NCBI RefSeq assembly: GCF_050320075.1
Contig: NZ_CP190018.1
Source: Escherichia coli
GTDB taxonomy: Bacteria > Pseudomonadota > Gammaproteobacteria > Enterobacterales > Enterobacteriaceae
Strand: one strand, 5' to 3'
DNA length: 64,000 nucleotides
This document shows, one piece after another, positions 31,200 through 34,100 of this stretch. How positions within the stretch are numbered: the stretch's first letter is position 1; every line of letters starts with the position of its first letter. The position numbers are program-made.

Positions 31200-34100
31200 T
31201 AACCGGACACGATCTTGATGTGGACTGTAGATATTCAGTCCACATCTCAATCCGCTTACCTGTTTTCTATCGCTTTGTGCTCTTCCTTAAGCACAATCTG
31301 CGAGCGCCTGACTCGTTATTCTCGCGAAATACCATCCAACGTAGACAACACTTCCTCAGAAAGATGCAATTTTTCAGCAGCCATATTCTCCCGTAAATGC
31401 GCAACAGAAGATGTCCCTGGGATCAGCAAAATATTCGGTGAACGTTGTAACAGCCACGCCAGCGCCACCTGCATTGGTGTTGCGCCCAGGCTCGCTGCTA
31501 CATCCGAAAGTGTGGAGGATTGCAGCGGCGTAAAGCCCCCAAGCGGGAAGAACGGCACGTAAGCAATGCCAACGCGGGCCAAATCATCAATCATTGCGTC
31601 ATCAGCACGATGAGCAATGTTGTATTCGTTCTGCACACAGACGATTTCGGTAATCTTACGCGCCTCTGCGACCTGCGTCGGTGTGACGTTGCTCAGGCCA
31701 ATATGTTTTACCAGGCCTTGTTGTTGCATCTCTGCCAGCACGGTCAGGCTGGCTTCAATCGATCCTTCCGCCGGGCCATGACCATCCCCCATCATGACGC
31801 GCAGGTTAACCACATCCAGTACGTCCAGGCCGAGATTACGTAGATTATCGTGTACCGCTTTTTGCAGCTCTGCCGGAGAAAATGCGGGCAACCAGGAAGC
31901 ATCCTCACCACGTCGTGCACCAATTTTAGTGACAATTGTCAGGTCGTCAGAGTAAGGATGTAGCGCTTCGCGGATAATCTGATTGGTGACGTGCGGACCA
32001 TAAAAGTCGCTGGTATCAATATGATTGACGCCCAATGCCAGCGCCTCGCGCAGCACGGTTATAGCAACGTGGCGATCTCTTGGGGGGCCAAAAACCCCAG
32101 GGCCTGCCAGTTGCATCGCGCCATAACCAAGACGGTTAACGGATTTTGTACCGAGAGTAAATGTGTTGCTGCTCATCGCACCCTGCCCTGTAATAAAACG
32201 GATTAAGAAAAATCAGTATAGAAACGAAAAGAGATAAATAATGCGAAGGCGTAAACAAGATTACTGGATGAGTTGCTCTATTGTCCTTGAAGACACCAAA
32301 ACAAAACGCCTAAAGCATCGCATCCGGCAATAAAAAACCGCAACCTGTATCAGCATTGCGGTTTGTGTATCACGTGCTAAAAATTAGAACGTTTTCTTGA
32401 AGTTCAGCATCACGCCTTTGTCGCTGATGCCTTCCTCTTTCCAGTTGTACGCATCCAGATTCAGCGAACTTTCTTTGCTGCTGTACTTCACGCCGACACT
32501 TGCCAGGCTGTTGATGCCGCCGCCCTTCTGACCGTCATCGATGTTAAAGTGCTGACTGCCTGCACCTGCCAGGCTTGCTGTGCGCTGGCTCTTCGCGTAG
32601 CTCAAGTTCGGCCCGCCTTCCAGCGTAGCGCTAGCGCTCCAGCCGTCTTTACCTGCATAGTCCAGTTTCAGCCCGACGATGCTGTCCACCGCCGTTTCGC
32701 TACCACTGTTCATATTCAGGTTAAAGTCTCCGGCATTGCGCTCCTGATAGCCACCTTCCAGTGTGTGACGCAGTTTCACACCCGCATATGGTGTGACCTT
32801 CAGCCCTTCGCTCGGTTCGAAAGTCTTCGCTCCTTCGCTGCGGAACTCCAGGTACTGCTGTTTCACGTCGGTATCAGCAGTTTTGTTCGTGTTGCTAAAT
32901 GCAATCGAACGGCTGCTGTCAAGGTTGTGAACGTCATAACGCAATGCGTTGTTCCAGTTCATGCCATTGTCGAAGGACATCTGATGTTTCAGGCCAAAGA
33001 ACTGGCTGTAACCGCCTGTAACACCATTATCGCCAGCTTTCTGCGCACCGTCGCCATCGAGACGAGCGATACCGTACTCCAGACTCATGGTCTGACTTTC
33101 ACTCAGGTCAATGGTTTTACGCAGTGCCAGCATGTCGTACTCGGTATTGTTCCCCAGCTCCGCGCGCGGATCGCCTTTCGCCACCACGTTGAACGCCAGA
33201 CCGTTACCCACTTTCGGTGCGGCATCTGCCAGCATGCTAAAGCGGTTGCTGAGCACACGCGCTTCGCGGAATACCGTGGTCGCCTGGCTACCGCTGACCT
33301 GTTTCAGGGCGCTGTTCAGTTCGGCAGTCGTGCCGACGTTCAGGCTGGTATACAGCTCGTTGTTGGTGTAACCCGCATCCAGTGCTTTCGCGACGTCATT
33401 CACCGAAGCATCGGTCGCCACATCGGTATAAGCGTTTTTGCTCATAGTGACGTCAACGTTGCCGCTGGCATCGGTACTGCCTTTAGCGTTCCAGACAACT
33501 GAAGAGGAAGTGATATTCTCCGCGCCGCTGATATTTTCACCTTTGAAAACATCATCAATCACCACGGTAGTATCAGCAGTTCCTGCACTAAAGCCAGTAT
33601 TTACCTTGACGTTGTCACTGATAACAAGGTTATTGGCTTTCAAGGTGCCGGAACTTCCGTCGCTATTAGTACCAATAGTGTAATTGGTAAGTTTTTGCTG
33701 ACTTACAGCATTGACTGGTGCCGCAGGAACATTACCTTGCCCAGGCGTCGCAGAAGCGACCGGTACGATTATATCCGCAGTTCCATCCTGACTGTTTCTC
33801 GTCCCTGTGGTATTTGGCGCATAAATCTCGCAACCAATATTACACAACAGGTTGATTATCCCATTATTCACAATCGCTTTAGTGGAACCACCAAACGCCC
33901 ATGAATTATCTGCATAAACGTTAATGACACCGTCTTTAGTATTATTAATCGTTGTTGCAGAACCATTTCCTTTGATGCCAATCAGACCTTCACCGTTGCT
34001 TCCATCTGCTTTGCCCTGTTCAGTACCCACGTTAATTGTGCCGCTGTTCACTAACTGAACAGTATAGCTGGTGGTGCCTCCGCTAATAGCAACTGAACCA

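Follow-up and report, generated by a model that had tools for sequence, protein, structure and literature searches.

We analyzed the junction between azoR and pdxI (the latter also known as ydbC) in a 64,000-nucleotide stretch of Escherichia coli DNA (contig NZ_CP190018.1), referred to below as the window. The ydbD-ynbABCD block, which separates these two genes in K-12, is absent from the window, where a 113-bp spacer (positions 31203-31315) lies between the two stop codons. We are highly confident that the spacer was left behind by one old deletion, about 7.04 kb long, which took place at a short microhomology and was afterwards inherited with recombination, and that the block itself had been acquired still earlier.

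The two genes bordering the spacer are intact and convergent. azoR (30597-31202, plus strand), the left flank of the deletion, is an open reading frame (ORF) for 201 amino acids matching the NCBIfam FMN-dependent NADH-azoreductase models. pdxI (31316-32176, minus strand), encoding a pyridoxine 4-dehydrogenase of 286 amino acids, was recognized as an ORF and by NF007695 (556.6 bits; aldo-keto reductase). Both names are those annotated in strain CFSAN061763, whose genome is 100% identical to the window here. A previous sequence-only reading of this DNA had placed azoR next to ydbC with 113 bp between their stops, and the gene calls gave exactly this spacing. It had also stated that ydbD and ynbA-ynbD lie between ydbC and azoR in K-12. 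This is correct: the K-12-derived locus used for comparison (L002) has the order azoR-ynbD-ynbC-ynbB-ynbA-ydbD-pdxI with 7,173 bp between the azoR and pdxI stops, and both the gene calls and BLAST against K-12 confirmed that the window is without the block. As the identical junction occurs in 145 independent complete genomes, the adjacency of the two genes in the window is not an assembly artefact.

Anatomy of the azoR-pdxI spacer

When positions 30000-33000 were used as a BLAST query, window 30002-31315 corresponded to L002 5630-6955 and window 31313-32999 to L002 14001-15686, the two pieces being collinear. The first piece extends 72 bp into ynbD from its 3' end (L002 6884-6955, with ynbD occupying L002 6884-8200 on the minus strand). 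Measured against K-12, the missing segment is 7,048 bp long, and against strain E300010 it is 7,043 bp; the flanks are collinear on both sides.

The scar was aligned (MAFFT) with the block-bearing alleles of K-12 (L002), 042, E300010 and 33-6. Its left portion (31203-31255) is the K-12-type azoR-ynbD intergenic region, which has been retained and aligns base for base with K-12, 042 and E300010. This portion carries a hairpin with an 11-bp stem (31217-31227 paired with 31236-31246, loop 31228-31235) that was found in both the minimum free energy and the centroid folds; the fold of the whole spacer has a z value of -5.4. The hairpin has no T-run and the terminator scan made no call on it, and it is not claimed here as a terminator. 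The right portion (31256-31315, minus strand) is the 3' remnant of ynbD, consisting of the stop codon (TTA on the plus strand, 31256-31258) and 19 sense codons. This remnant shows an additional 12-bp gap at 31267/31268 relative to every intact allele aligned, and it contains a second hairpin with a 7-bp stem (31275-31281 / 31290-31296).

The deletion junction itself is marked by the trinucleotide TCG (31313-31315), which abuts the pdxI stop codon and is present at both breakpoints of intact genomes. There, the left breakpoint reads ...GGCTCG/AATATA... and the right breakpoint ...GTATATTCG/TTATTCTC... (slashes mark the breakpoints), with the two TCG copies of K-12 located at L002 6953-6955 and 14001-14003. 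The window has a single copy, and its junction reads ...GACTCG/TTATTCTC. Inspection of the junction for deletion scars or repeats, as had been recommended by the sequence-only reading, yielded both a gene remnant and a microhomology. In addition, pdxI of the window has the 3' end seen in block-bearing genomes (...LDGISRE) and not the empty-site one (...AQKAG) found in the genomes with a 39-bp spacer described below. The two ends of the deleted segment are perfect inverted repeats of each other over 8 bp (CGAATATA...TATATTCG). Neither direct reading of the spacer nor the alignments revealed any insertion sequence (IS), IS end, target-site duplication or long repeat within 31203-31315, and the annotations of CFSAN061763 and of another carrier, which is of sequence type (ST) 2747, show no IS at the junction.

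Mechanism and inheritance of the deletion

Most likely, the process started from a K-12-type locus, from which the deletion would have taken ynbD (except for its last 24 or so codons), ynbC, ynbB, ynbA, ydbD and the ydbD-pdxI spacer. Because the breakpoints share only 3 bp, with no IS or long repeat at either, the scar points to illegitimate, microhomology-mediated recombination, which could have been replication slippage or end-joining. A further 12 bp would have been lost from the ynbD remnant, either afterwards or simultaneously. The deletion allele would then have been inherited in a lineage including the ST38 clone, and homologous recombination would have put it into mosaic flank haplotypes such as that of ST2747. 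The block itself would have been inserted earlier, within Escherichia, into an ancestral 39-bp azoR-pdxI spacer.

The distribution of the junction was determined in 5,426 complete E. coli genomes. azoR and pdxI are adjacent in 788 of these. The window junction was found in 145 genomes (144 with at least 99% identity over azoR-pdxI, plus ST2747), and another junction, with a 39-bp spacer, in 643; since 145 and 643 add up to 788, there are only two adjacency types. The full block (at least 80% coverage) is carried by 3,755 genomes and a partial block by about 870. The partial states include a ydbD-only deletion (L088; EcPF5), which is internal and keeps both ends of ydbD, a deletion of about 1.6 kb in ynbB/C, and insertions of ISVsa5 or ISKpn26. 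Strain 042 has an IS1 in ynbB, and strain 33-6 has suffered an IS1-associated loss from the 5' part of ydbD through pdxI to ydbA. The locus is therefore variable in E. coli, as the sequence-only reading had suspected, with several structural states (scar, empty site, partial blocks and IS insertions) that are counted here by genome rather than by independent event. Two carriers of the window junction, 28Eco12 and 266917_2, belong to ST38 (PMC6963479). A literature search on the CFSAN0617xx strains gave nothing useful on their ST or phylogroup. ST38 presumably belongs to phylogroup D, and 042, the reference strain of that phylogroup, carries the block.

It appears quite improbable to us that an IS caused an adjacent deletion here, or that the block was excised site-specifically as an island. 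IS rearrangements do occur at this locus elsewhere, as seen from 042 and from 33-6, where IS1 replaces the ydbD 5'-pdxI-ydbA region; K-12 ydbA holds both IS2 and IS30, the ISApl1 copies of the window lie about 4.8 kb from the junction, and the 8-bp inverted repeat that bounds the lost DNA might be counted on the same side. However, the junction is free of any IS, IS end or target-site duplication, and CFSAN061763 shares this junction but lacks the ISApl1 transposon (the nearest IS in the window, ending at about 26.4 kb) and the other IS insertion of the window. Precise excision of an island is contradicted by the left breakpoint, which falls within the ynbD coding sequence, 125 bp inside the block, whereas the island boundaries, as defined against the empty-site allele, are the azoR stop codon and the last five or so codons of pdxI; the 39-bp spacer was not restored. 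Site-specific excision is further disfavored by the K-12 block (L002), which has no integrase or recombinase gene. A hairpin-assisted deletion through CGAATATA/TATATTCG was also considered and rejected: the repeat is probably due to chance, and 8 bp cannot plausibly pair over 7 kb.

Several points weigh against a single microhomology deletion followed by inheritance. The mechanism is read from the scar, and a 3-bp microhomology, being within chance expectation, is compatible with it but weak. The 8-bp inverted repeat CGAATATA/TATATTCG might reflect a more specific mechanism. The ST38 or phylogroup label is taken from two published strains among the 145 carriers. Finally, the left flank of ST2747 differs by 2.1% from the window but by only 1.0% from the block-bearing E300010. 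Simple vertical inheritance is insufficient to account for ST2747, and recombination must be invoked.

For ST2747, one deletion followed by homologous recombination that shuffled the flanks is the simplest reading. Its entire 113-bp spacer is identical to that of the window, including the extra 12-bp loss and the substitutions specific to the remnant, while its pdxI differs by 3.0%, and its site patterns, which change between 31139 and 31266, indicate mosaic flanks. It is very unlikely that the same junction arose repeatedly at a TCG/TCG hotspot, once in the ST38 type and once in ST2747. The divergence of about 2-3% in both flanks and the closeness of the left flank to a block-bearing strain would be expected under such recurrence, but the complete scar is identical in both, down to the idiosyncratic 12-bp loss; 3 bp of homology gives no cause for repetition; and mosaic flanks are a normal result of homologous recombination in E. 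coli. A 201-bp mismatch-free tract shared by ST2747 and the window at the junction was examined as a possible imported patch and was found not to be significant by itself, as tracts of 165-287 bp also occur nearby.

The ancestral site and the age of the block

The second adjacency type, represented by WP4-W18-ESBL-08 (L003) and SK1144, separates the two genes by 39 bp, in which there is a canonical hairpin terminator (GCCTCCCACgaaaGTGGGAGG followed by a T-run) but no ynbD fragment. Its PdxI consists of 288 amino acids ending in ...LDSIAQKAG, as opposed to ...LDGISRE in the block type. SK1144 is listed as phylogroup B2 (PMC12366417).

Outgroups were sought by comparing PdxI with species-representative genomes. 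Among the 80 best matches (from a total of more than 592), mostly distant homologues from Rhizobiales and Burkholderiales, the informative close relatives were E. albertii, one divergent "E. coli", Pseudocitrobacter, Kluyvera and Enterobacter; E. fergusonii, E. marmotae and Salmonella fall outside this set. Pseudocitrobacter faecalis (L008) has the same synteny, paaXY-ydbA-pdxI-azoR-hrpA-ydcF, and its spacer is homologous to the 39-bp form of E. coli, consisting of GGCCTCCCGCgaaaACGGGAGGC plus a T-run and then TTAACCCGC... as the end of pdxI. A homologous 39-bp spacer is also present in the divergent "E. coli" representative (L007), which differs by 7% and is probably a member of a cryptic Escherichia clade. 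Because the spacer is homologous between these E. coli genomes (L003 and L007) and P. faecalis, the 39-bp form is the ancestral empty site, and comparison of the two alleles indicates that the block replaced this spacer together with the last five or so codons of pdxI. The guanine-plus-cytosine (GC) content of the block, 46.7% versus 51-53% in the flanking genes, fits a foreign origin. In E. albertii (L006), ydbD lies beside a K-12-type pdxI end, with the contig ending inside ydbD, which argues that the insertion is old.

The sequence-only reading had left a choice between loss of the block by this strain and gain by K-12. The evidence indicates that both apply, at different depths: the lineage of the window lost the block by deletion, and the block represents an older insertion. 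The window is best read as a secondary loss and not as a retained empty site, since both block-type boundaries and the ynbD stump are present. That the window is instead a never-occupied azoR-ydbC site, with K-12 and its relatives having gained the block, has very little probability: block-free adjacency in Pseudocitrobacter, the other inserts found at this position in Kluyvera and Enterobacter, and the low GC content of the block do argue for a gain at some depth, but the window spacer holds 60 bp of ynbD coding sequence and an azoR-ynbD intergenic region of the block type, its PdxI ends like that of block-bearing genomes, and the genuine empty site, with its 39 bp, GCCTCCCACgaaaGTGGGAGG terminator and 288-residue PdxI, is a different allele that is found in 643 other genomes and not in the window.

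The empty-site genomes differ from the window in other respects as well. Between L003 and the window, divergence rises at the spacer, from 4.2% in hrpA-azoR to 8.6% in pdxI. No paa genes follow the ydbA-like gene in L003, and YdbA of L007 shows 72% protein identity to that of the window. These differences are consistent with a haplotype to the right of azoR that is either ancient or imported. Other insertions were seen at the same position in related genera. In Enterobacter sp. ENT03 (L010 10847-11246), the azoR-pdxI spacer contains five tandem, GC-rich palindromic units of about 70 bp that resemble repetitive extragenic palindromic (REP) elements, and in Kluyvera genomosp. 1 (L009 10841-11330) it contains an insert of about 0.5 kb, apparently with a small ORF. 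This suggests that the azoR-pdxI terminator region tolerates insertions. A bolder proposal would be that the region is a preferred landing and loss site across the Enterobacteriaceae, that E. coli has undergone at least three independent deletions there, and that loss of ynb/ydbD was adaptive in pandemic ST38. We regard this as unlikely; if true, the loss would not be neutral but selected, for example through a change in the chemistry of envelope glycolipids or one related to MPIase.

Consequences, neighboring elements and known systems

The genes lost are those for YnbD (a PAP2/dual-specificity phosphatase, lost except for the remnant), YnbC (hydrolase/methyltransferase), YnbB (a CdsA paralogue), YnbA (CDP-alcohol phosphatidyltransferase) and YdbD (a DUF2773 bactofilin). 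YnbA to YnbD make up a set of paralogues of lipid-modifying enzymes. A K-12 ynbB knockout grew like its parent and its MPIase level was unchanged (PMC6362211); loss of the block would therefore be expected to be tolerated. In line with this, YnbABCD and YdbD are dispensable in successful clinical lineages. The ydbD-ynbABCD block is accessory in E. coli: about 15% of complete genomes have lost it or never had it. The 113-bp scar provides a clean lineage marker for the ST38-type group.

The deletion may also have affected transcription termination. In K-12, pdxI ends in a canonical intrinsic terminator (AAAAGGGAAAgatgcaTTTCCCTTTT plus a T-run; L002 13994-13969, minus strand) that lies within the deleted segment, and the terminator scan made no call on either strand of window 30900-31700. 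As the native terminator is deleted and the window retains only the hairpin lacking a T-run and the 7-bp hairpin, it is plausible that pdxI transcripts extend into the ynbD remnant and the shared hairpin, convergent with and antisense to azoR. For annotation transfer, the ynbD stump should be treated as a pseudogene fragment, and pdxI as a gene without its usual terminator.

Upstream of azoR lie hrpA (26494-30396, minus strand) and ydcF. Between the latter two, three small hypothetical ORFs of 125, 152 and 130 amino acids (20187-21512, minus strand) have no Pfam match; they are common to the window, CFSAN061763 and 042 and are absent from K-12, ST2747, E300010 and the B2-type genomes. Their presence in some strains and absence from others is a further small polymorphism, some 10 kb away from the deletion scar. 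On the other side, pdxI is followed by ydbA (32384-38875, minus strand), which encodes an intact BigA/YdbA-type autotransporter of 2,163 amino acids, and then by paaYX. ydbA of the window contains internal tandem repeats of about 294 bp (self-matches at 36513-38220). The gene is a pseudogene broken by IS2 and IS30 in K-12, and a divergent version of about 2,840 amino acids in B2-type genomes; 042 and E300010 have no ydbA, and there pdxI directly adjoins paaY.

Far more noteworthy than the block deletion is a chromosomal Tn6330-type composite transposon, ISApl1-mcr-1-pap2-ISApl1 (21686-26420), located between the hypothetical genes on the ydcF side and hrpA. As a determinant of colistin resistance it has clinical relevance. 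mcr-1 (22942-24567, plus strand; 541 amino acids) matched NF000465 (NCBIfam MCR-1) with 1302.7 bits, the cutoff being 1100, and pap2, within the same element, matched the PAP2_near_MCR1 model with 547 bits. The two ISApl1 copies, starting at about 21685 and about 25364, are direct repeats whose transposases match the IS30 family. CFSAN061763, otherwise identical, has an empty site at this position, and no genome among the 5,426 complete ones has the insertion junction of the transposon. Also absent from CFSAN061763 is a 1,443-bp IS3-family element (13718-15160) with orfA (13765-14286; HTH_28) and orfB (14529-15134; rve), the ends TGTACTG...CAGTACA and a 3-bp AAC target duplication. Its length and termini are compatible with IS150.

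As a whole, the deletion is a routine, lineage-specific loss of an accessory block, of the kind found throughout E. coli pangenomes, and no new kind of biology. The junction is already public in the 145 complete genomes, with both flanking genes annotated. A literature search for natural variation in ynbABCD/ydbD led to work on a laboratory strain with a reduced genome and to a study of the transcriptome; the polymorphism is described in neither.

In its form, the scar resembles the spontaneous microhomology deletions of E. coli, such as the classic ones in lacI: a short direct repeat with one copy kept, no mobile element, and one breakpoint within a gene, of which a truncated pseudogene remains in the window. 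It differs from them in that the homology is only 3 bp, the span is 7 kb, the deletion has been fixed in a natural lineage and was not selected in the laboratory, and the remnant has lost an additional 12 bp. When compared to the K-12 MG1655 locus (b1406-b1412), the window has the same flanks in the same orientation (hrpA and azoR on one side; pdxI, ydbA and paaXY on the other), the same azoR-proximal hairpin and the same pdxI C-terminus, but it is without the 7,048 bp that begin within ynbD and run through ydbD and the terminator of pdxI, and its ydbA is intact. The empty-site allele of B2-type E. coli and P. faecalis shares with the window the convergent azoR-pdxI arrangement with no ynb or ydbD genes in between. 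However, its spacer is 39 bp long and contains a canonical bidirectional hairpin terminator, there is no ynbD remnant, and its pdxI differs by about 8.6% in nucleotide sequence. The empty-site allele represents a primary absence of the block, and the window a secondary loss.

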